From a virus (taxonomy: Duplodnaviria; Caudoviricetes): a stretch of DNA of 64,000 nt. Shown here one piece after another: positions 25,016-64,000 of this stretch. The stretch lies in IMG/VR virus record IMGVR_UViG_3300032038_000010, positions 64,001-128,000 of that record; one strand, given 5' to 3'. How positions within the stretch are numbered: the first letter of the stretch is position 1; each line of letters starts with the position of its first letter. The notes beneath the pieces were generated by a model. It was given only the letters and a program-made list of their open reading frames with translations. It had not been told where the DNA came from and made no database searches. A program made the position numbers and the translations under genes.

Positions 25016-25294
25016 ATGGCACTTAAGGAAAATTCACGCAAGGTTTATGATTATGTTTCTGCACATGATGGCGAGGACTTTACAGCAAAGGATATTGCTG
25101 CAGCACTCGGACTTGATGCTCGTCAGGTAAATGGTATCGTTACTTCAGCTTTCCAGCGTAAGGGACTTATGGAGAGAGTTGAGGCAGAAGTTGAGAACGC
25201 AGACGGTACGCATGATAAGGTTAAGCTCGTTAAGCTGACAGACGCTGGCCGCGAGTTCGATCCAGATGCTGATCCTGAGAAGAAGGCAGAGTAA
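25016..25294 (+). CDS. Small winged-helix DNA-binding protein
   Basis: TAKDIAAALG...KGL...LTDAG pattern; strong promoter and SD. Confidence 0.65.
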   Translation: MALKENSRKVYDYVSAHDGEDFTAKDIAAALGLDARQVNGIVTSAFQRKGLMERVEAEVENADGTHDKVKLVKLTDAGREFDPDADPEKKAE

Positions 25295-54603: not shown

Positions 54604-54780
54604 ATGAGTAAATATATTGATCCAAATAATCCTGGGTATGAAGATCCAAGAGAACAATCGATTGGATGGCGTGGCGAAGGGCGGCCGCTTGGGATTAAAA
54701 CAGAGGCGTGCCCAGTTGATGGACATTATTGTGAGCAGCCGCAATGTGAGAACTGCAATTTTGAAGAGGTGTCTCAATGA
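54604..54780 (+). CDS. Small Cys-rich protein (58 aa, below track cutoff)
   Basis: AAGGAG SD; TGA overlaps next ATG. Confidence 0.55.
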   Translation: MSKYIDPNNPGYEDPREQSIGWRGEGRPLGIKTEACPVDGHYCEQPQCENCNFEEVSQ

Positions 54781-55214
54781 TTATTACATTAACTGGTCAT
54801 AGACCGCCAAGATTACGGGGACAAGAGAAAGAAATCAAAACTTGGCTAAAAAATATTTTACATTCTTTTGGAGAAAATAATATTTGCATTTCTGGGATGG
54901 CTGCAGGGGCAGATCAATTATTTGCGTATACAGCAATAGAAGAAAACAATAAATTATGGTGCGCTTGGCCTTATCATAAAAAGAATCGAGATTATGCAGA
55001 ATATTTAGAAGATCATGCTGATAATATTATTTTTGTAAATCAAGATTATAGTCCTGATTGTTATACCATAAGAGATAAATTTATGGTAGACCAAGCTGAT
55101 ATTGTATTAACTGTTTGGGATGGGAAACCATGGGGCGGCACTTATAATACAATAAAGTATGCAGAACAGCAAAATAAAACAATCATTGAATATAGAGGAT
55201 TAAAAAATGAGTGA
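54777..55214 (+). CDS. SLOG-superfamily (YspA/DUF1273-like) protein
   Basis: TGHRP, SGMAAGAD, RD.FMVD, VWDG..GGT..T..YA. Confidence 0.8.
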   Translation: MIITLTGHRPPRLRGQEKEIKTWLKNILHSFGENNICISGMAAGADQLFAYTAIEENNKLWCAWPYHKKNRDYAEYLEDHADNIIFVNQDYSPDCYTIRDKFMVDQADIVLTVWDGKPWGGTYNTIKYAEQQNKTIIEYRGLKNE

Positions 55215-55941
55215 AGCATTAAAAGCGCGGGCGGCCGCTCGTCACCAAATGATACTGGACCGATTTGCGGGAGCGACGGCCGCAAGTATTAAATCAAGTA
55301 AAATTTATAAAGAAAATAGTGTATTTATTCCAAAGGGTAGCTGGGTTAATACACATACTGTCTTAGCTGATAACAACTCTGTGGGGGCGATTGATAGATA
55401 CTCCGAAGGGCGGACTGCAGTCCTTAATTTTGCGAGCTTCCGCAATCCAGGCGGCGGTTACATGCAGGGAATGATGGCGCAGGAAGAGGCACTATGTTTC
55501 GCATCTAATCTTTATGAGGTTTTATCTAATTTTGAAGATTATTATGAAGAAAATCGAAAAGATTTAAATGGCGGGATGTATTATGATAGAGCTATTTATT
55601 CGCCTGATATAATCTTTATGTATCATAATAAACAAATTAAGTGCGATGTTATTACCTGTGCGGCGCCCAATTTAAGAAACGCTCAAGGAGATAGAATAAG
55701 GAATCATAAGGTATTGGTCCAGCGCGCGCACTTCATTAATCAAATAGTTGAAGATAATAATGTTGATACATTAATTCTTGGCGCATATGGATGCGGAGTT
55801 TTTAGACAGAATCCTTATGAAGTTGCGGAAATATTTAAGAATGAATTTAAAAATACTACGGTAAAGAAGATTATTTATGCGGTTCCCGCAAATTTAAATG
55901 AAGAAAATTATTATGCTTTTGAAGAGGTGTTAAATAAATGA
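55207..55941 (+). CDS. Microbial-type PARG macrodomain (TIGR02452/DUF2263-like)
   Basis: VLNFAS..NPGGG...AQEEALC, ITCAAPN, LILGAYGCGVF.QNP. Confidence 0.88.
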   Translation: MSEALKARAAARHQMILDRFAGATAASIKSSKIYKENSVFIPKGSWVNTHTVLADNNSVGAIDRYSEGRTAVLNFASFRNPGGGYMQGMMAQEEALCFASNLYEVLSNFEDYYEENRKDLNGGMYYDRAIYSPDIIFMYHNKQIKCDVITCAAPNLRNAQGDRIRNHKVLVQRAHFINQIVEDNNVDTLILGAYGCGVFRQNPYEVAEIFKNEFKNTTVKKIIYAVPANLNEENYYAFEEVLNK

Positions 55942-56234
55942 TTATACAAGATTTACGATATGAAGAGTTAGTACCTTCTCCATATAAATATCTTGCTTTT
56001 GAATTACCTGTTGATAAAAAGGGTTAGTTATTGTATGATATAGAACAATCAATGAGGATTCTTCAAGTAATTCAAGAAGGTACTGGGAAAAATTATGCTG
56101 GCTATTTTGCTATTATGCCACAAAATGTAATAAGAGAAATGGCTAAAGAAGATATTAAACAATATATTAAAGTATTAGAGAGGATGATAACAGATGGCGA
56201 GACGAACGAATGTTCTGAAGATGACAGCGACTAA
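55938..56234 (+). CDS. Hypothetical protein (TAG at 56025)
   Basis: GAGGTG SD; ATG overlaps upstream stop; frame joins track ORF 56031. Confidence 0.6.
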
Positions 56235-56608
56235 ATATAAGAAGAAAGCAAAAAATGCGGCGACCCAGGCGGTGTATATGGGACTGATCACTGATACCTA
56301 CGGTATCAGTGATGAAGGTGTCGTATTCTAAAATTTTGAAGAGAATACCGTATTCTGAAATCAAAAAAACTTTTGGAGAGAATTTTGCGCAGCACAAGTC
56401 ATTTTTTCACTTTTTTAAAATTTTCTCCCGAAAATACACCCCCCAGTAGGACACTAGATGAACAATCTCAAACAAATTCTCTCTTCATCACGACCCGCCG
56501 CAAACAAGCCTAGCCGCACAGACTCAGCAAGGCTTGACCATCTATTCTTTCATCGAACATTAATCAATAGAACAACACACAACACATAAACTATTTATTA
56601 ATCAATAG

Positions 56609-56690
56609 AACAAACTAATTAAAATGATTACAAATAAAATAAACAAACTAATTAAAATGATTACAAATAAAATAAACAAACTAATCAAAA
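56609..56690. repeat. 33-bp tandem repeat, about 2.5 copies
   Basis: AACAAACTAATTAAAATGATTACAAATAAAATA twice plus a partial copy. Confidence 0.85.
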
Positions 56691-56962
56691 GAAATACAAT
56701 AACAATAGTACATACATAGTATTAGTCTCAGGCTCGCGGTCGGATGTCGCGAGCCTCTTTTCATTTATTTGTAACATCTCACCATTTAATTGTTTGACTT
56801 TTGCACTTTTATTATACTATACTCGATCCTGAAATGTCAATAGGCAAAGTGTACAAATTTTATCTGCTATCTTTGTGCAACATTACCTATTGCATTTTTT
56901 TCTGCTCTGTGCTATACTATAATCATCAAGAGGAGATAACAAAGAAAAGGTTGGTAATAAAA

Positions 56963-57103
56963 ATGTTTAAACTTTGGATTGAATGGTGGGACACAGGTCT
57001 TAAGGTTGAGGACGAATTCGATACCTATGAAGAAGCAATCAAGGCAGAGAAGAGTTACTCTAAAATGTATGGATTCATCACATCAGAAATCACTAAAGAA
57101 TAA
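56963..57103 (+). CDS. Small early protein
   Basis: Own promoter and SD; start reassigned to MFKLW. Confidence 0.6.
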   Translation: MFKLWIEWWDTGLKVEDEFDTYEEAIKAEKSYSKMYGFITSEITKE

Positions 57104-57189
57104 AAAAAATAAAAAAAGCACTTGACAAAATCATTAAAAAGTGCTATACTATAATCATCAAGAGAGATAAAGAAAGTGAGGTAACACTT

Positions 57190-57360
57190 ATGATGAATGT
57201 TCACATTAACAATCTTAAAGAGTATGCAAAAGAGTATAAGTACATTGTAGCAAAGGTTATTGATAATGAGCTTTGGTTTTGGGGCGCTTGGGACGACCTG
57301 CTTAAGGCTGAGAAGGTAGCTCATGAACTTGGCAATGCTGTTGTAGTAGCTAACACTTAA
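57190..57360 (+). CDS. Small early protein, paralogue of 58902
   Basis: EYKYIVA...ELWFWGAW; GAGGT SD. Confidence 0.75.
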   Translation: MMNVHINNLKEYAKEYKYIVAKVIDNELWFWGAWDDLLKAEKVAHELGNAVVVANT

Positions 57361-57593
57361 TCGTAAGAGTAAGTCGAAAGACTTGCTCTTTTATTGCCCT
57401 GGCGCGCTGGCGTCCGGGCCAGCGCGCTTTTCCATTATACCATAGCCATCGAGTTTTGTCAATAGGCAAATTGTACAAAGATCTGAGGGAAAAATATCCC
57501 AAAATTGGGCAAAAAATTTTTCAAAAACCGCTTGACTTTTCGGGCGCATGATGGTATAATTAAATCATCAAAAGAAAGAAAGAGGTAAATAAA

Positions 57594-57725
57594 ATGACAA
57601 CTACTTACTACAGACTTAGATACAGAAATGGTGAACATGGTGCTTGGACAACTGATTATGAAAGAATTGTGAAAGATGCAAAATTCTTTAAAGCTGAAAT
57701 TGAAACAAGAGAATTTAAGAGATAA
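57594..57725 (+). CDS. Small early protein
   Basis: Promoter and GAGGT SD; 43 aa. Confidence 0.65.
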   Translation: MTTTYYRLRYRNGEHGAWTTDYERIVKDAKFFKAEIETREFKR

Positions 57726-57803
57726 AAATCTCTTAAAACTCTTGACAAGAGAAAAAAGATCGACTATAATTAAATCATCAAAAGAAAGAAAGAGGTATAC
57801 AAA

Positions 57804-57971
57804 ATGACAAATTGCTTATACTGTAGAAATGCTGATACATATCCATACATTGTAGCATCAGATGATTGTGAAGAGTTTGAAGAAAACTTTGAGCATCATT
57901 GGGAAATGATGGATGACATTGAGCGAGAAGAATATAACTCATACATAGATGAATGTGAAGAGGATGAATAA
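57804..57971 (+). CDS. Small acidic Cys-containing early protein
   Basis: Promoter and GAGGT SD; CLYC and Asp/Glu-rich tail. Confidence 0.65.
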   Translation: MTNCLYCRNADTYPYIVASDDCEEFEENFEHHWEMMDDIEREEYNSYIDECEEDE

Positions 57972-58058
57972 ATCCCAAACATTTTTCAAAAAAGTGTTGA
58001 CAAACAAATCAACCCATGATATAATAATTATAGAGTTAAGGAAAAGAGGTAAATAATT

Positions 58059-58241
58059 ATGTATAGATATTTTATTATGAGCGAGTCACTTGTTATTGAG
58101 GGTTGTACTTCTTGTGAGTGCAACACTTACCCATTAAGTAAGGAAGTGTGTGAGCGCAAGATGGCTCAAGCACTGAAGTCAATTGCACTTCATGGTGCTA
58201 GACGAGTTATTCGCTCGTGGATTGAAGAAGTTACAGAGTAA
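58059..58241 (+). CDS. Small early protein
   Basis: Promoter and GAGGT SD. Confidence 0.65.
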   Translation: MYRYFIMSESLVIEGCTSCECNTYPLSKEVCERKMAQALKSIALHGARRVIRSWIEEVTE

Positions 58242-58696
58242 CTTCTTCAAAAACAATAAAAAAAGTGTTGACAAACAAGATCCAATGTGCTATTATAATA
58301 ATGTAAGGAAGAGAGGTGTTGAAAATGAGAAGTCCCCCTAATTAAAACCCACAAGTTCAGAATAGTGGCAACCTACCAGTAGGAGAGACCCACCGCGCTT
58401 CAGCCTATCCCCTTTAGGGCGCGAAAACAATTCAGGCGGGGTTGAGGACAAGGGGATGACCTCAACCAAGAGAAAGAGTGCGACAGAATAAGTTCGGCAC
58501 TCTTTTTTCTTTGTGCGGGCGGCGCGTGCACTGGCGTTTCGCGCCGAAATTTCAGTATACCACATGAGCCACATTTTGTCAATAGGAAATTTGCACAAAA
58601 ATTTTATCTAGTTGATCCTGAAATTTTGTGCAATTTTACCACTTGCTTTTTCTTTTTGTTTGTGTTATACTATAATCAGAAAGTGAGGTAAGTAGT

Positions 58697-58852
58697 ATGG
58701 CACAAGAAAAGATAGTCCTCGTAAAGGTATTATTAAATATTACAAGAGATAGACAAACTGTTTACAACTTTGTTAAATTTTGTAAACTTGCTAGCTATGA
58801 AAAATCTGTTGAATATTTTTTAAGAATTTCTAAAAAAGTGCTTGACATTTAA
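58697..58852 (+). CDS. Small early protein
   Basis: Promoter and GAGGT SD; 51 aa. Confidence 0.55.
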   Translation: MAQEKIVLVKVLLNITRDRQTVYNFVKFCKLASYEKSVEYFLRISKKVLDI

Positions 58853-58901
58853 ATTAGAATCTGTTATAATATAATCATCAAGAGAAAAGGAGATACAAAT
58901 C

Positions 58902-59057
58902 ATGATTAATAACCTTCCTACTTACGCTAATGAATACAAGTACATTGTTGCTCGTAGAGTTGATGGAGAGCTCTGGTTCTGGGGAGCATGGAATGACCGC
59001 AACAAAGCAAATGAAGTTGCTATCGAGATTGGCGGTGAAGTGGTCACAAATCAGTGA
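58902..59057 (+). CDS. Small early protein, paralogue of 57190
   Basis: EYKYIVA...ELWFWGAW; AAGGAG SD. Confidence 0.75.
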   Translation: MINNLPTYANEYKYIVARRVDGELWFWGAWNDRNKANEVAIEIGGEVVTNQ

Positions 59058-59135
59058 CCACCAAATAAAAAAGAGTTGACAATTTAATCTTTATGTGATA
59101 TACTTAAATCATCAAAAAAAAGAGAGGTAACAATA

Positions 59136-59381
59136 ATGACTTACATTATTTCTATCAATGCTGGACACAATTTTGAAATCACTGGTGATGAAGCTGCTTA
59201 CGAAGCTTATACAAAGGCTTGTGAATTTGCTGAAACTATCGGTGCGAGAGTTGATTTTCTTGATGCTGAAACTGGTGAAGTACTTGCATCATCTGACGAT
59301 GATGAAGATTATGAGCCTGATGACATTGACTCAGATTTCGGTTATGACCCTTACATAGGAGAATGTACTTACGATTGTTAA
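59136..59381 (+). CDS. Small acidic early protein
   Basis: Promoter and SD; DAETGEV; GYDPYIG tail. Confidence 0.7.
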   Translation: MTYIISINAGHNFEITGDEAAYEAYTKACEFAETIGARVDFLDAETGEVLASSDDDEDYEPDDIDSDFGYDPYIGECTYDC

Positions 59382-59601
59382 GCAAGGCACCCCGAAAGAG
59401 GCGCTTTTTTGTTTGCGGTGTGCCGCGGTGGGGCGCCGCGGCACGAAATTTCATTATAACATACCTGAGCTACTTTTGTCAATTGATATTTTGCACAAAA
59501 ATATTCTTGAATTAATCCTAAAATTTGTGCAAAATTACTACTTGTATTTTACATAGAAAGTGCTATACTATAATCAGAAAGAAAGAAAAGAGGTAAACAA
59601 A

Positions 59602-60048
59602 ATGATGAACGAAAAGATAATCGCTTTTGATATGGATGGGACTTTCGTAGACCTCTATGGCGTTGATAATTGGTTACAGATGTTACAGAATAAAGAAACT
59701 ACTCCTTATGAGATTGCAAAGCCTATGTATGATATGAACGATTTTAACAAGGCTCTCAATCGGTTGAAAACAAAAGGTTTCAAGATTGTGGTGATTAGTT
59801 GGTGCGCAAAGGTTAATGATAAAGCCTATGACGCAAGAGTAAGAAAAGCAAAAAAGAATTGGTTAAAGGCTTATAACGTACCTGTTGATGAAATTCACAT
59901 TGTAAAGTATGGAACACCTAAAGCCTATACAATTAAAGGTAACGCAATCTTAGTTGACGACGAAAAACCTAACAGAGATAAGTGGCATAGAGGTCGTACA
60001 ATAGACGCAACAAAAAATATTCTTGAAGAGCTTGAAAAAATCGCTTGA
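59602..60048 (+). CDS. HAD-superfamily phosphatase/nucleotidase-like protein
   Basis: FDMDGT, ISW, K, LVDD motifs. Confidence 0.8.
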   Translation: MMNEKIIAFDMDGTFVDLYGVDNWLQMLQNKETTPYEIAKPMYDMNDFNKALNRLKTKGFKIVVISWCAKVNDKAYDARVRKAKKNWLKAYNVPVDEIHIVKYGTPKAYTIKGNAILVDDEKPNRDKWHRGRTIDATKNILEELEKIA

Positions 60049-60103
60049 CAAAATCATAAAAAGATGATATAATAAAATCATCAAAAGAAAGGAAGAAAAA
60101 ACA

Positions 60104-60340
60104 ATGACAAGAGAAGAAAAAATGGCAATAACAATACTAACGAGTATGCGTGATGGCTTGCATGAAACAGGTAAAGATTTTCCGTATCGGGATGAGTGTA
60201 TCCCATATATGAAAAAATCTTGTGACATGGCTATTGAAGCATTAAGACGACAAGATAGAATATTACAGATTCTTGATGATTGTGACCTTGAAGCATGGGA
60301 AATGTTGGAAAAGATAAAGGGGGTGATGAGAAATGACTAA
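60104..60340 (+). CDS. Small early protein
   Basis: Promoter and SD; MAIEAL motif. Confidence 0.65.
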   Translation: MTREEKMAITILTSMRDGLHETGKDFPYRDECIPYMKKSCDMAIEALRRQDRILQILDDCDLEAWEMLEKIKGVMRND

Positions 60341-60551
60341 GACAACATGGATTATCACCGACCCCGATGAAAACATCAAAACTGAGCTGACCTATTACCA
60401 CTTTGGAAAAGAACCTAGGGTCCCAAGCTGGTACATGGAAAGGGGTAAGGTTTATGAAATTGAAATGATTGGGAGTTTCAAACTCCTCCGCACTCCGAAA
60501 CTGTTTTTCAAGTGCCTTACCCATTTTTGCATCATGAAAGCCGCCAATTAA
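60333..60551 (+). CDS. Small early protein
   Basis: GGGGTG SD; overlaps upstream stop. Confidence 0.55.
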   Translation: MTKTTWIITDPDENIKTELTYYHFGKEPRVPSWYMERGKVYEIEMIGSFKLLRTPKLFFKCLTHFCIMKAAN

Positions 60552-61011
60552 AATGGCGGTTTTTCTCTGTGCGGCGCGCCGCTCTCGCCTGTCGCGGCGC
60601 GAAATCTCCATTATACCACACGTTGCACCTTTTGTCAATAGGAAAAATGCACAAAAATTCATTAGACTAGATCCCGATTTTTTGTACAAAATTACTACTT
60701 GTATTTTGAAAAATTTTTTGCTATAATGTATTTACAAGGTAAGGAAAGAAAAGCACTTCACTTCTCGGCGGTTCCGCCACAAAAAAAACTTCAAAAAAGT
60801 GCTTGACAAACAAAAAACCTTGTGATATAATATAATCAAGAAGTGAGAGATAGAAATGAAGGTCATTGAGTTGACAAGTGCGCATAGCCAACCCAGACCT
60901 CCCCACCAAATAAAAATCTTAAAAAACTTCTTGACAAATAAAACTTAATATGTTATAATGTATTTACAAAGTAAGAAAACAACAAATCATTTTAAGAAAG
61001 AGGTGTTCTCT

Positions 61012-61362
61012 ATGGCAAACTCAAACAAGGTTACTAAGGCTCAAATGTTCGCTCTTATCGCTGAGAAGGTCGCTGACAATCAAGAAATGGTTGACTTCCT
61101 TAACAAGGAAATCGAGCTTGTTAATAAGCGCAACGCTCGCAAGTCCTCTAAGCCTTCTAAGAAGGATGTTGAGAATGAAGCTATCAAGGCTTCTATCGAG
61201 GAAGTCCTGTCTAATGCCGAAAGTGGTATGACCGTTACGGAAATCACCAAGGCTCTTGACGGTGACTTCTCTACTCAGAAGATTAGCGCACTGCTCCGTC
61301 AGATGGACGGCGAGGTTGTCAAGACCTACGAGAAGAAGGTTGCCAAGTTCACGCTTGCGTGA
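61012..61362 (+). CDS. Small DNA-binding protein with C-terminal winged-helix-like segment
   Basis: MTVTEI...STQKISALLRQ; GAGGTG SD. Confidence 0.65.
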   Translation: MANSNKVTKAQMFALIAEKVADNQEMVDFLNKEIELVNKRNARKSSKPSKKDVENEAIKASIEEVLSNAESGMTVTEITKALDGDFSTQKISALLRQMDGEVVKTYEKKVAKFTLA

Positions 61363-61626
61363 CCTTCGCTCTTCGGAGGGTAACAATTGAATAATGTCAA
61401 TAGGCAAGGTTCACAAAACCTTGCCTATTTTTTTGTGCAATTTTTTACTTGACAAATGAACTGCGGCGTGCTATAATGGCGGCCCGCGGTTGATCGCCGC
61501 GGGCTGTTTTTTGTCAAGTAGTAATAGTTCACAAATTTTCCATCCAAATTTTGTGCAATTTTACCTCTTGCATTTATCCCGTAATGTGCTATAATTAAAT
61601 CATCAAAAGGAAAGAGGTAAACAGTT

Positions 61627-61857
61627 ATGACTAGACACTCTATTGAAAACCTTCAGTATTTTGTTCTTATGGCTCTTATTCTCGCTCAGTGTGTTGTGGG
61701 AGAGGCCTTCTATATTGGGCAGGGTATTTATTTAATAGCAAATGCGCTTTCAGTTTTTCGTTCTTTTGCTTTAAGGCGTCCCGCAAGTGATAAAGTTAAA
61801 GATGTCGCTTGTTTGGCTATTACAATCGGTTTGATACTTTTTAAAATTTTTGCTTGA
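61627..61857 (+). CDS. Small membrane protein
   Basis: Three hydrophobic segments; promoter and SD. Confidence 0.65.
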   Translation: MTRHSIENLQYFVLMALILAQCVVGEAFYIGQGIYLIANALSVFRSFALRRPASDKVKDVACLAITIGLILFKIFA

Positions 61858-61907
61858 CAAACTTTCTATATTATGATATTATAATTATAGAAAGAGAGGT
61901 AAGAGTT

Positions 61908-62360
61908 ATGGAAAAACAGTTAGTGCTTGATATGGACGGAACATTCGTTGATTTGTATGGCGTTCAAAATTGGTTGCCAATGCTCAAGGTAGAAAGTGTA
62001 GAACCTTACGCAACCGCTAAACCGCTTTATGATATTGATGTAATCAATGCTTTACTTAATATTCTTAAAGGCTACGGCTTCCGCATTATCGTTGTTTCTT
62101 GGACTGCTAAAAATGGCTCAAGAGCCTACAATCAAGCGGTTAGAAAAGCTAAAATTGAATGGCTCAAGGCTCACAAAATGCCGATTGATGAAATTCACGT
62201 TGTCAAGTATGGCACACCAAAATATCGACTTGTCAAGGGTAACGCAATTCTCATTGATGATGAAGAACCAAACCGCAATAGTTGGACAAGAGGAAAAGCA
62301 ATCGACCCCACAGACGGGCTGATTGATAAATTGCTCGATTTGGTACTCGAAAACTCTTGA
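61908..62360 (+). CDS. HAD-superfamily protein, paralogue of 59602
   Basis: LDMDGTFVDLYGV...DEIHVVKYGTPK...GNAILIDD. Confidence 0.8.
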   Translation: MEKQLVLDMDGTFVDLYGVQNWLPMLKVESVEPYATAKPLYDIDVINALLNILKGYGFRIIVVSWTAKNGSRAYNQAVRKAKIEWLKAHKMPIDEIHVVKYGTPKYRLVKGNAILIDDEEPNRNSWTRGKAIDPTDGLIDKLLDLVLENS

Positions 62361-62417
62361 CAAAACCGCCGCAAGGCGATATAATAAAATCACAAAAGAA
62401 CAAAAGGAGGTTCTAAT

Positions 62418-62558
62418 ATGACAGCAGTATCTTATGAAATCTACAATGCGTTCGGAACTGTGGTTGAGGTTGTAAAGTCTTGGGAACTTGCAAAGGCAAG
62501 AGCAAAGGCAGTTGGAGGAGCTTACAAAATTATTTATACGCCAGTTAATGCATTTTAA
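62418..62558 (+). CDS. Small early protein
   Basis: AGGAGG SD; 46 aa. Confidence 0.65.
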   Translation: MTAVSYEIYNAFGTVVEVVKSWELAKARAKAVGGAYKIIYTPVNAF

Positions 62559-62765
62559 TGCGGGCGCCCGCTCAGAAATCACTCCTGGGCGGGTTTTTTG
62601 TGGCTCGCGACCGGGCGCCGCGAGCCATTCTTTCATTATAGCATACCTATACCACTTTTGTCAATGGTAAATTTGCACAAAAAATTTCTTAATTTAATCC
62701 CAAAATTGTGCTTGACATTTTTCTTATCTTTTGTTATAATGTATTCAGAAAGTGAGGTAAGGCTT

Positions 62766-63014
62766 ATGAACAATATTAAACTCATTAAAAGCGATAATAA
62801 TTATAGATTAGAGTTATGGGGCGCAAGCACTAAACACCCTGATGTTGTTTATGATATGGAAAATGACATCAAAGAAGGGCGGTTTTGCCTTTGCCCTTAT
62901 GAAGAGAGCAAAGAGTGGAACTTATACCAGTGGGTTCTCTACTGCGCAAGCCGTACAATGTGGAGAACAACAGCGATTCAGTTAGTAGAGTATGCGAATA
63001 TTTTACTGAATTAA
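62766..63014 (+). CDS. Small early protein
   Basis: Promoter and GAGGT SD. Confidence 0.65.
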   Translation: MNNIKLIKSDNNYRLELWGASTKHPDVVYDMENDIKEGRFCLCPYEESKEWNLYQWVLYCASRTMWRTTAIQLVEYANILLN

Positions 63015-63383
63015 TTTTAAGAGGGCGGGCGACCGCTCTCTTTTTTGTCGGTCTGTGTGCGGCCGCCCACAGACCGAAATTTTATTATAGCACACCTAGC
63101 GACATTTTGTCAATAGGAATTTTGCACAAATATTTTCTTGATTTGATCCTGATATTTGTGCATTATTACCAGTTGACTTTTACAGCTGACCGCGTTATAA
63201 TGTATTCAGAAAGTGAGGTAATATTTATGAAGATTATCCCTATTGTAATTAAGCGCAAACTAAAAACAGAAGTCAATCTTGATGAATTAAGAAAAAACTT
63301 TTAGAAAAAAATCAAAAAATGCTTGACAAGGCTTCAATTATGTGTTATACTAAAGTCATCAAATGAAAGAGAGGTTAAAATCC

Positions 63384-64000
63384 TTGGATAAAAGAATTAG
63401 TTACAAAATTGTGCTTGATACAGAAACTTGCCCTATTGATAAAGACTTTCAAGGGGTTGACCCTTCTAATATGTGGGTGTACGATTGCGGTTGGGCGGTT
63501 GTTGACAAGCGGGGGAATGTTTACAAAACAAGGTCTTTTGTAAACGCTGACATTTTCCTTGGTGAAAAGGACTTGATAAAATCGGCTTACTATGCGAACA
63601 AAATTCCTAAATATTGGGAAGAAATCAAAAGTGGAAAGCGGATTTTGACAAGTTTCTACAATATCCGCAAGGCTCTTTTGGAAGATGTGGAAATGTTTCA
63701 CGTGAAACAAGTCTACGCCCACAATATGCGGTTTGACCTTGGTACATTGAACGTAACAGAACGCTGGCTCACAAAATCAAAATATCGCTACTTTTTTCCC
63801 TATGGCGTTGAAATCTGCGATACGCTTAAAATGTCAAGAGATGTAATCGCTACAATGCCAACTTACAGAAAATTCTGTGAAGAAAATAATTACTTCACAA
63901 AAAATGGTCAAGTTCGGCTTACTGCTGAAATTATTTACAGATTTATTACAAAAGATAATGACTTCACTGAAAAACATACAGGGCTTGAAGATGTGATGAT
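63384..64000 (+). CDS. DEDDh 3'-5' exonuclease; runs off the window
   Basis: TTG start with GAGGT SD; VLDTET, AHNMRFD, DTL, HTGLED. Confidence 0.85.
   Translation, partial: MDKRISYKIVLDTETCPIDKDFQGVDPSNMWVYDCGWAVVDKRGNVYKTRSFVNADIFLGEKDLIKSAYYANKIPKYWEEIKSGKRILTSFYNIRKALLEDVEMFHVKQVYAHNMRFDLGTLNVTERWLTKSKYRYFFPYGVEICDTLKMSRDVIATMPTYRKFCEENNYFTKNGQVRLTAEIIYRFITKDNDFTEKHTGLEDVM

Follow-up and report, generated by a model that had tools for sequence, protein, structure and literature searches.

Gene-less promoters directed into GC-rich palindromes at early gene borders of a large uncultured phage: a candidate transcription boundary module

Related elements and the module in this phage

The promoter-early stem-loop (PeSL) cassettes of T4-type phages are small repeated intergenic elements of the variable early region in which a near-consensus host-type promoter is combined with a stem-loop; they flank small ORFan genes, and limiting read-through is their proposed role (Arbiol et al. 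2010, PMC2839356; Comeau et al. 2014, PMC4122927). A repeated module similar in all these respects was found in a window of 64,000 nucleotides (nt), bases 64001-128000 of the 136,945-bp IMG/VR record IMGVR_UViG_3300032038_000010 of an uncultured phage from gut or rumen. The module comprises a GC-rich palindrome, a gene-less promoter that usually points backward into it, an inverted pair of half-sites (dyad) and a second promoter for the next genes. Large phages are known to carry boundary cassettes of promoter and stem-loop, and the module is classified here as a variant of these. The promoter of a PeSL cassette serves the gene downstream and has the stem-loop inside or next to it, whereas the promoter linked to the hairpin is here gene-less and usually backward. 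The fixed palindrome length of 27 nt, the dyad with its two spacings and the second promoter within the module are further differences.

In Escherichia coli, single-molecule work on bidirectional terminators between two convergent genes has shown that head-on collisions between polymerases are needed against read-through, and that the site of collision depends on a stem-loop formed in the nascent RNA (Wang, Watters, Ju and Liu 2022, bioRxiv 10.1101/2022.10.23.513370). The module resembles these terminators in the convergent transcription predicted from sequence to run into one stem-loop shared by both strands, and in a stem without strand bias, as a two-way element requires. It differs in that a gene-less promoter about 30 nt away takes the place of a convergent gene, and in that its flanks are not the usual pair of A-tract and U-tract.

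Three other systems have one trait each in common with the unit. The lambda OOP RNA (pO-oop-tO), which is short and acts in cis as an antisense RNA to the end of cII, has its own terminator and a product of 77 nt; here too a phage promoter lies antisense to the end of an upstream early gene and precedes no open reading frame (ORF), but no dedicated 3' end was found and there are 12 copies per genome. In coliphage 186 the face-to-face promoters pR and pL, 62 bp apart and present in a single copy, both drive genes. Close convergent promoters in a phage control region, with interference set by their relative strength, are the shared trait, whereas the pairs described below flank a palindrome, are about 38 bp apart from -10 to -10 and are repeated at many gene-block borders. 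The repetitive extragenic palindromes and bacterial interspersed mosaic elements (REP/BIME) of enterobacteria are chromosomal, have a conserved sequence and carry no attached promoter; the present palindromes are likewise GC-rich and lie just past operon ends, but are phage-borne, variable in stem sequence and attached to a promoter.

The phage record is 89% complete with a GC content of about 33%, and codes for portal, large terminase, two topoisomerase II subunits, NAD ligase, RecJ, DNA polymerase and NrdD. It is labelled here as a large Firmicute-type phage. The nearest named phage by portal protein is the human-gut phage phAss-1 (40% identity), the paper on which describes TAG recoding and does not mention promoters or repeats. 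The modules lie in an early-type region (56.7-67 kb in window coordinates) with many ORFan genes of 40-160 codons, almost all on the plus strand, each with a strong Shine-Dalgarno (SD) sequence and most with their own TTGACA-N17-TATAAT promoter.

Architecture, pairing and conservation

The window contains seven backward units and one forward unit of promoter and hairpin (Table 1), and the whole record contains 12 (10 backward, 2 forward) within 10 kb of early region. Of the four units just past the window end, three are on the minus strand (window-equivalent positions 64179, 65125 and 66182) and one is on the plus strand (66889). Read in the direction of the genes, a standard cassette consists of the intrinsic terminator of the upstream operon, the GC palindrome, GAAATTTCC, the backward -10 and -35, TAGG-N-TTGCACAAA, 10-20 variable bases usually including ATCC-YR-AAATTT, and then TTTGTGCAA, the weak -35 promoter of the genes, the SD and the genes themselves. 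The cassette contains both TTTGTGCAA and its mirror copy, so that the back-to-back promoters share one upstream box in mirror image.

An initial annotation of the window had described hairpins with kept pairing, consensus minus-strand promoters, an inverted pair and plus-strand promoters for the next genes. Its coordinates are all correct to within 1 nt, and the parts, with the plus-strand promoters found as described, form one conserved module of promoters, hairpins and dyad. The plus-strand unit of promoter, hairpin and T-run was recovered at 61449-61514. The hairpin was said to stand next to the promoter, which is the case in units 2-7 (3-9 nt) and not in unit 1, where it lies about 55 nt from the -10. 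The inverted pair is real as a dyad; units 2 and 6 have a degenerate right half-site TTTGTGCA or none, and the variants TGTACAAA and TTTGTACA occur among units 1, 2 and 5.

The consensus promoters are present at all seven minus-strand positions, with 12 of 12 consensus bases (11 of 12 at 58554). On the plus strand they read as a -35 of TGTCAA and a -10 of ATTATA or AGTATA; the spacers are 17-18 nt long and six of the seven have the TGn of an extended -10. About 0.01 exact promoter matches per strand are expected by chance in 8 kb, as estimated from base composition. The promoter class TTTGTGCAA-N8/9-TTGACA-N17/18-TGnTATAAT is directed into a GC hairpin in 12 of its 12 copies in the genome. The linkage becomes 12 of 14 if the minus-strand matches of TTGACA...TATAAT type at genome positions 61213 and 118523 are included; both are outside the early region and without a hairpin, and no TTGTGCA box is listed for them. 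None of the other 21 plus-strand promoters of TTGACA...TATAAT type in the genome runs into a GC hairpin, as judged from match positions. The upstream box TTTGTGCAA with a weak -35 (TTGCAT, TTGCTT, TTGTAT) precedes the rightward genes, and the backward promoters are nearer to consensus than these gene promoters. Their spacer sequences have diverged while the hexamers and the TGn are kept, a pattern indicative of selection on promoter function. A minus-strand ORF with a function of its own was rejected as an explanation because the long minus-strand ORFs begin at the ATG of TATAATG, upstream of the predicted transcript, and are antisense to real genes.

All 12 hairpins of the genome fold into a single stem-loop (-14.5 to -24.6 kcal/mol), and the kept pairing described earlier is borne out by compensatory changes. 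A covariance model was built from the copies in the genome and gave 93 matches, with the test made on 79 distinct sequences; it replaced a MAFFT alignment in which the copies were not all in structural register. Paired bases occupied 91.4% of the stem cells, compared with 65.3% in column shuffles and 32-48% in slid controls. Double-sided changes were found in 148 cells against 41.5 expected, none of 500 shuffles being as high, and all eight pairs had changes on both sides. The total length of the hairpin peaks sharply at 27 nt (60 of 135 units) independently of how it is divided between stem and loop. The leader from the -10 to the stem falls into two classes, of 7-8 nt (GGAAATTT) or 2-4 nt. 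CpG dinucleotides are near-invariant at positions 6-7 and 21-22 (29 of 31) and common at 1-2, 11-12 and 26-27, that is, at fixed places about 5 nt apart in the 27-nt palindrome (for example in units 3, 5 and 6).

Loop length and sequence vary, and no loop motif common to the whole family was found. A loop motif CGACCCA/TGGGTCG recurs in relatives in both orientations. A mimic of CRISPR repeats (RNA anti-CRISPR) was rejected because the stem sequences differ among copies, and a replication origin or packaging site was set aside, as the element has 12 copies, is GC-rich rather than AT-rich and is tied to operon ends.

The hairpin differs from the intrinsic terminators around it. In the direction of the genes it is followed by GAAATTTCC-ATTATA and not by the U-tract of an intrinsic terminator, and in the direction of the promoter a U-rich tail follows it in only 9 of 134 units; an A-rich tail, present in 38 units, is the reverse of the U-tract of the upstream terminator. 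A separate canonical terminator within 70 nt faces 55 of the 85 long-leader units, and in 31 of those 55 its stem ends 8-14 nt from the palindrome. A terminator scan of 56000-64000 found none on the minus strand. Past the reversed upstream terminator the U content is 0-4 of 8, and the terminators beside backward units are not more A-rich on the 5' side than others (3.47 and 3.67 A in 8 nt, p 0.58), which argues that they are not adapted to stop a backward RNA. The hairpin also stays with the promoter in the inverted unit.

A hairpin that acts as RNA tolerates G.U and not A.C, so that G.T mismatches should exceed A.C on the transcribed strand. This was seen in the canonical terminators of the same loci (121 G.T and 40 A.C, p 1e-10) and in a matched set of GC-rich terminators (35 and 11). 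The promoter-linked palindromes had 22 G.T and 19 A.C (Fisher p 0.04 against the matched set), without the terminator-like tolerance; units of the type found in the window, with a single promoter and a long leader, had 26 and 19 with the next-inner pairs included. Wobble pairs are rare in the covariance alignment too (7 of 628 cells). The equal wobble on both strands would mean that the palindrome folds in RNAs from both directions or is read as DNA, and the comparison is suggestive of a constraint acting equally on the two strands. The case in which the hairpins are merely terminators of the upstream genes, raised in the initial annotation, does not agree with the usual presence of a separate canonical terminator, the pairing kept on inversion and a wobble use unlike that of terminators.

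In the family as a whole, TGCACAAA and TTTGTGCA are separated by either 21-22 bp (86 distinct cases) or 31-33 bp (68), with only four cases between, and the sequence between the half-sites varies. The two spacing classes are one helical turn apart, which fits a protein gripping both half-sites on one face of the DNA. This supports the idea, already put forward in the initial annotation, of a single operator-binding factor, and the dyad is probably an operator for a dimeric DNA-binding protein; the spacing would also be compatible with contacts made in phase by the two polymerases. The dyad gives a defined DNA target in the search for the regulator. The 116-amino-acid protein encoded at 61012-61362 has a winged-helix-like C-terminus, belongs to phrog_19455 (function unknown) and has paralogs at G000 128673-129017 and 130467-130813. 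It gave 85 tblastn hits in 60 related loci, often two or three per phage. The gene is not consistently beside modules (14 of the 85 hits), and both this protein and the one at 25016, which had also been proposed as a binding partner, have weak family matches only. The 61012 protein can be regarded as a candidate DNA-binding early protein.

The module is widespread in related phages. The box TTGTCAAT-N7-TTGCACAAA was found in at least 119 IMG/VR contigs, many of 100-200 kb, and most copies have the hairpin and the ATTATACCACA context. A second set of 56 loci was fetched by means of the DEDDh-like exonuclease gene at 63363, and the two sets together contain 135 distinct units in which a promoter leads to a GC hairpin. 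In diverged relatives the cassettes are the best-conserved DNA, with 70-80% identity over 100-150 nt, and the genes between them differ. About half of the units of the family lack the TTGTGCA motif and still keep the order of promoter and palindrome. When the loci were oriented by the exonuclease gene, a palindrome accompanied 61 of 159 strong antisense promoters and 54 of 916 sense ones, and the long-leader matches of the covariance model were antisense to the early genes in 47 of 47 cases. In the present genome no SD-led ORF was found within 400 nt of the 10 backward units, one weak TTG frame excepted, in line with the lack of SD or credible ORF noted earlier. On a defining point of the PeSL cassettes, a promoter that drives the following gene, the module thus falls outside the group, its hairpin-linked promoter being gene-less and backward.

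Many borders in close relatives have a face-to-face pair of promoters around one palindrome, with an ordinary early promoter with a 2-4-nt leader on the gene side and the long-leader promoter on the other side. In the present genome the gene-side partner is mostly lost, and remnants such as TTGACTTTTGG adjoin the palindrome. With a leader of 2-4 nt transcription would probably start inside the 5' arm, and the complete hairpin could then not fold in that RNA, an argument against regarding it as the product of the nearest promoter. phAss-1 has one copy (OQ749652.1, about 130,640-130,830), in which two promoters face each other across a GC-rich segment and a dyad and a gene promoter come next; it is not annotated as a feature, and the coding sequence of a hypothetical protein (130698-131642) is called across it.

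Searches in GenBank phages by megablast and blastn, with the region and with one cassette, gave no match, and a scan of the whole window against Rfam gave none at gathering score; the tRNA scan was likewise empty. Genome contigs scanned for the unit gave chiefly chance matches and phage-like contigs in metagenome-assembled genomes of inconsistent taxonomy, from which no host could be called. A literature search on the motif strings returned only primers and unrelated matches, and no paper describing the unit was found. The unit is a real regulatory module, widespread across related phages and apparently undescribed. The 24-nt box TTTGTGCAA-N-TTGACA can serve as a marker for early regions and gene-block borders in metagenomic phage contigs.

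Possible functions of the module

The module is tentatively interpreted as a cis-acting boundary of transcription, an insulator or gate between early gene blocks, and not as a source of free small RNAs. A more specific form of this interpretation, possible and on balance doubtful, is an operator-gated collision insulator, in which the sole task of the gene-less promoter would be to send polymerase head-on into the palindrome at every early-operon border and a phage factor bound to the dyad would open and close the borders. In the layout assumed for this mechanism the palindrome of about 27 nt comes right after the U-tract of the upstream terminator and is followed, after 3-9 nt, by a near-perfect putative sigma-A promoter pointing back at it; next come the TGCACAAA..TTTGTGCA dyad and a promoter with a weaker -35 that would drive the next genes. 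Polymerases escaping the upstream terminator would enter the palindrome and there collide head-on with a polymerase that either sits at the backward promoter, about 30 nt away, or has started from it, and the palindrome would form a hairpin in each of the two nascent RNAs. The very strong transcription coming from upstream promoters would in this way be kept from leaking into the next, separately controlled block, and the dyad-binding factor, by setting both back-to-back promoters, would make the boundary adjustable in time.

The module is the most conserved non-coding DNA in the early regions of large gut and rumen Firmicute phages, a group almost unstudied for transcription. If the boundary interpretation is correct, neighbouring transcription units would be insulated compactly with the host polymerase alone, which bears on the timing of phage expression, and the module might be adapted for Gram-positive hosts as a synthetic insulator. 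The operator-gated collision insulator, if real, would be a new means of setting up boundaries of transcription and its timing, kept in a large clade of uncultured phages from gut and rumen.

Several points weigh against this interpretation. The upstream operon already has a terminator of its own, and the need for a second device is assumed. In coliphage 186 an elongating polymerase reportedly dislodges a promoter-bound one in most cases, so the roadblock may be weak. To accommodate the forward units (61449 and 66889) and the face-to-face pairs, it must be supposed that antisense transcripts have to be stopped as well. The wobble comparison rests on 41 mismatches, and past exchange of promoters across the palindrome could blur a strand bias. 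The covariance alignment was fitted to the structure, although slid controls and a promoter-anchored analysis agree with its result. Finally, the fixed CpG positions and the fixed length of 27 nt are left unexplained by a boundary and hint at sequence-specific recognition.

It is unlikely that the product is instead a hairpin-capped cis-antisense RNA comparable to OOP, the 5' stem-loop of which would guard against 5'-end-dependent decay while the rest of the RNA base-pairs with the upstream mRNA at its terminator and 3' end and alters the stability or processing of that mRNA. The backward promoter is indeed antisense to the 3' end of the upstream operon, its transcript must cross that terminator and it has no ORF. 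If transcription starts 5-7 nt after the -10, the 5' leader is at most about 4 nt, and such a short leader before a stem matches the 5' stem-loop stabilisers of Bacillus. However, no dedicated 3' end was found, the neighbouring terminators being no richer in A on their 5' side; nor is there a preference for G.U in the stem on the promoter strand, and the short-leader and forward units do not fit.

The equal rarity of G.T and A.C is also what would be expected if the palindrome were read as DNA, for example by the type II topoisomerase of the phage in relieving the positive supercoils that accumulate where transcription converges, in the manner of REP/BIME, or if it were a PeSL-like recombination hot spot by which early genes are shuffled; this is rated as quite unlikely. 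The fixed length of 27 nt, the fixed CpG positions, the two topoisomerase II subunits encoded by the phage, the conservation of the module above all other DNA between diverged relatives and the paralogous genes in the array can all be cited for it. One clear case at a module was found, an insertion of 1.6 kb exactly at the divergent module of one locus (L163 8802-8846) relative to a 97% identical one (L170), with a flank overlap of 33 nt. Of 21 insertion or deletion borders found when close relatives were compared, only 4 are at most 150 nt from a module, so that recombination at cassette borders, suggested in the initial annotation and characteristic of the PeSL cassettes, is weakly supported here. 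Loops of 7-13 nt and GC-rich centres make extrusion of a cruciform unlikely, and a DNA-level role does not explain why a promoter 3-9 nt away should be perfectly conserved.

A central proposal of the initial annotation, and the one of its claims that has fared worst, was that the units produce short hairpin RNAs serving as decoys for RNA-binding or defence proteins of the host. Free RNAs with such a role in trans, whether as decoys or as sponges, are considered very unlikely. Very strong promoters in many copies, a stem conserved in pairing with a variable sequence, and an order of promoter and hairpin kept in both orientations would suit such RNAs, and in the forward unit (61449) a T-run is present, with which the transcript would be about 30 nt long. 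Such a run is the exception, as the 9 U-rich tails among 134 units and the lack of minus-strand terminators show, and no family-wide loop motif is available for recognition. The stem is constrained without strand bias and without G.U preference on the promoter strand, transcription of the short-leader units would probably start inside the stem, and a strict antisense position behind terminators is unnecessary for a trans-acting RNA. A sink for RNA polymerase, also proposed there, is possible, as is a roadblock. A supercoiling device, proposed at the same time, fits poorly: the unit occurs in tandem orientation too, and supercoiling coupling of divergent promoters was set aside on this ground.

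That nothing special is involved, the hairpins being ordinary or back-up terminators and the backward promoters by-products of an inverted duplication of gene promoter and operator, is scarcely probable: the hairpins at 56730, 57401 and 59419 do pass a lenient plus-strand terminator scan and both back-to-back promoters have the same upstream motif, but the backward promoters, whose spacers have diverged, match the consensus better than the gene promoters do, the hairpin remains with the promoter on inversion, wobble use is unlike that of true terminators, and the half of the family without TTGTGCA has the same order of promoter and palindrome.

Feature coordinates and the neighbourhood of the modules

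Table 1. Positions of the modules and associated features in window coordinates (strand. where no direction applies).
Feature	Position	Strand	Remarks
Unit 1, GC hairpin	56730..56756	-	-17.3 kcal/mol, z -4.95; atypical, about 55 nt downstream of its own promoter
Unit 1, putative gene-less consensus promoter	56811..56840	-	TTGACA-N18-TATAAT; -10 at 56811; -35 at 56835
Unit 1, dyad	56850..56879	.	TGTACAAA..TTTGTGCA; 22-bp spacing class
Terminator of the plus-strand gene upstream of unit 2	ends ~57390	+	
Unit 2	57401..57462	-	hairpin 57401-57428; -10 57434-57439; -35 57457-57462
Unit 3	58520..58582	-	27-nt hairpin 58520-58546; -10 TATACT 58554-58559; -35 58577-58582
Unit 3, dyad	within 58592..58671	+	TGCACAAA (58592)..TTTGTGCA (58625); 33-bp class; ATCC-YR-AAATTT extension
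Unit 3, putative rightward gene promoter	within 58592..58671	+	weak -35 TTGCTT (58643); TATACT (58666)
Unit 4	59420..59482	-	hairpin 59420-59444; -10 59453; -35 59477; covariance-model score 55.9 bits
Unit 4, dyad	59492..59531	.	32-bp class
Unit 5	60575..60638	-	27-nt hairpin 60575-60601; -10 60610; -35 60633
Unit 5, dyad	60648..60688	.	TGCACAAA..TTTGTACA; 33-bp class
Terminator of the 61012-61362 gene	61399..61436	+	stem made from a copy of the -35/half-site module
Inverted (forward) unit	61432..61514	+	TTTGTGCAA; TTGACA 61449; TATAAT 61472; hairpin 61478-61508; T-run
-35/half-site module without -10, downstream of the forward unit	61509-61535	+	followed by dyad and promoter of the 61627 gene
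Unit 6	62601..62664	-	27-nt hairpin 62601-62627; -10 62635; -35 62659; left half-site 62674
Canonical terminator of the upstream plus-strand gene	63019..63047	+	hairpin and T-run; abuts the hairpin of unit 7
Unit 7	63048..63113	-	hairpin 63048-63077; -10 63084; -35 63108
Unit 7, dyad and putative rightward gene promoter	63123..63201	+	half-sites 63123 / 63155, 32-bp class; TTGACT-N17-TATAAT

At the left edge of the early region, immediately left of the first cassette, an AT-rich repeat of 33 bp occurs three times in tandem (56587-56707); they could represent iterons or else a border element. Immediately left of the early array (54777-55941) are the genes for a SLOG-like protein and a PARG of microbial type. 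Within the array, 58268-58510 is a transcription unit with its own promoter and a micro-ORF of 6 codons, followed by about 160 nt of a GC-richer, hairpin-forming RNA with no gene and no Rfam match. A pair of paralogous genes for HAD-type 5'-nucleotidase-like proteins (59581-60048 and 61908-62360), with 77% DNA identity over 84 nt, indicates a segmental duplication inside the array.

A repeated promoter with the leader TATAATGTATTTACAAGGTAAGGAAA is found at 60700-60800 and at G000 128270-128420 and 130390-130440; the copy at 60726 is followed by about 60 nt without an ORF and then by the next promoter. The gene terminators at 61399-61436 and at G000 128062-128100 are both made from copies of the -35/half-site module, which forms the stem in the first and the loop in the second, a sign of the freedom with which the module is re-used.

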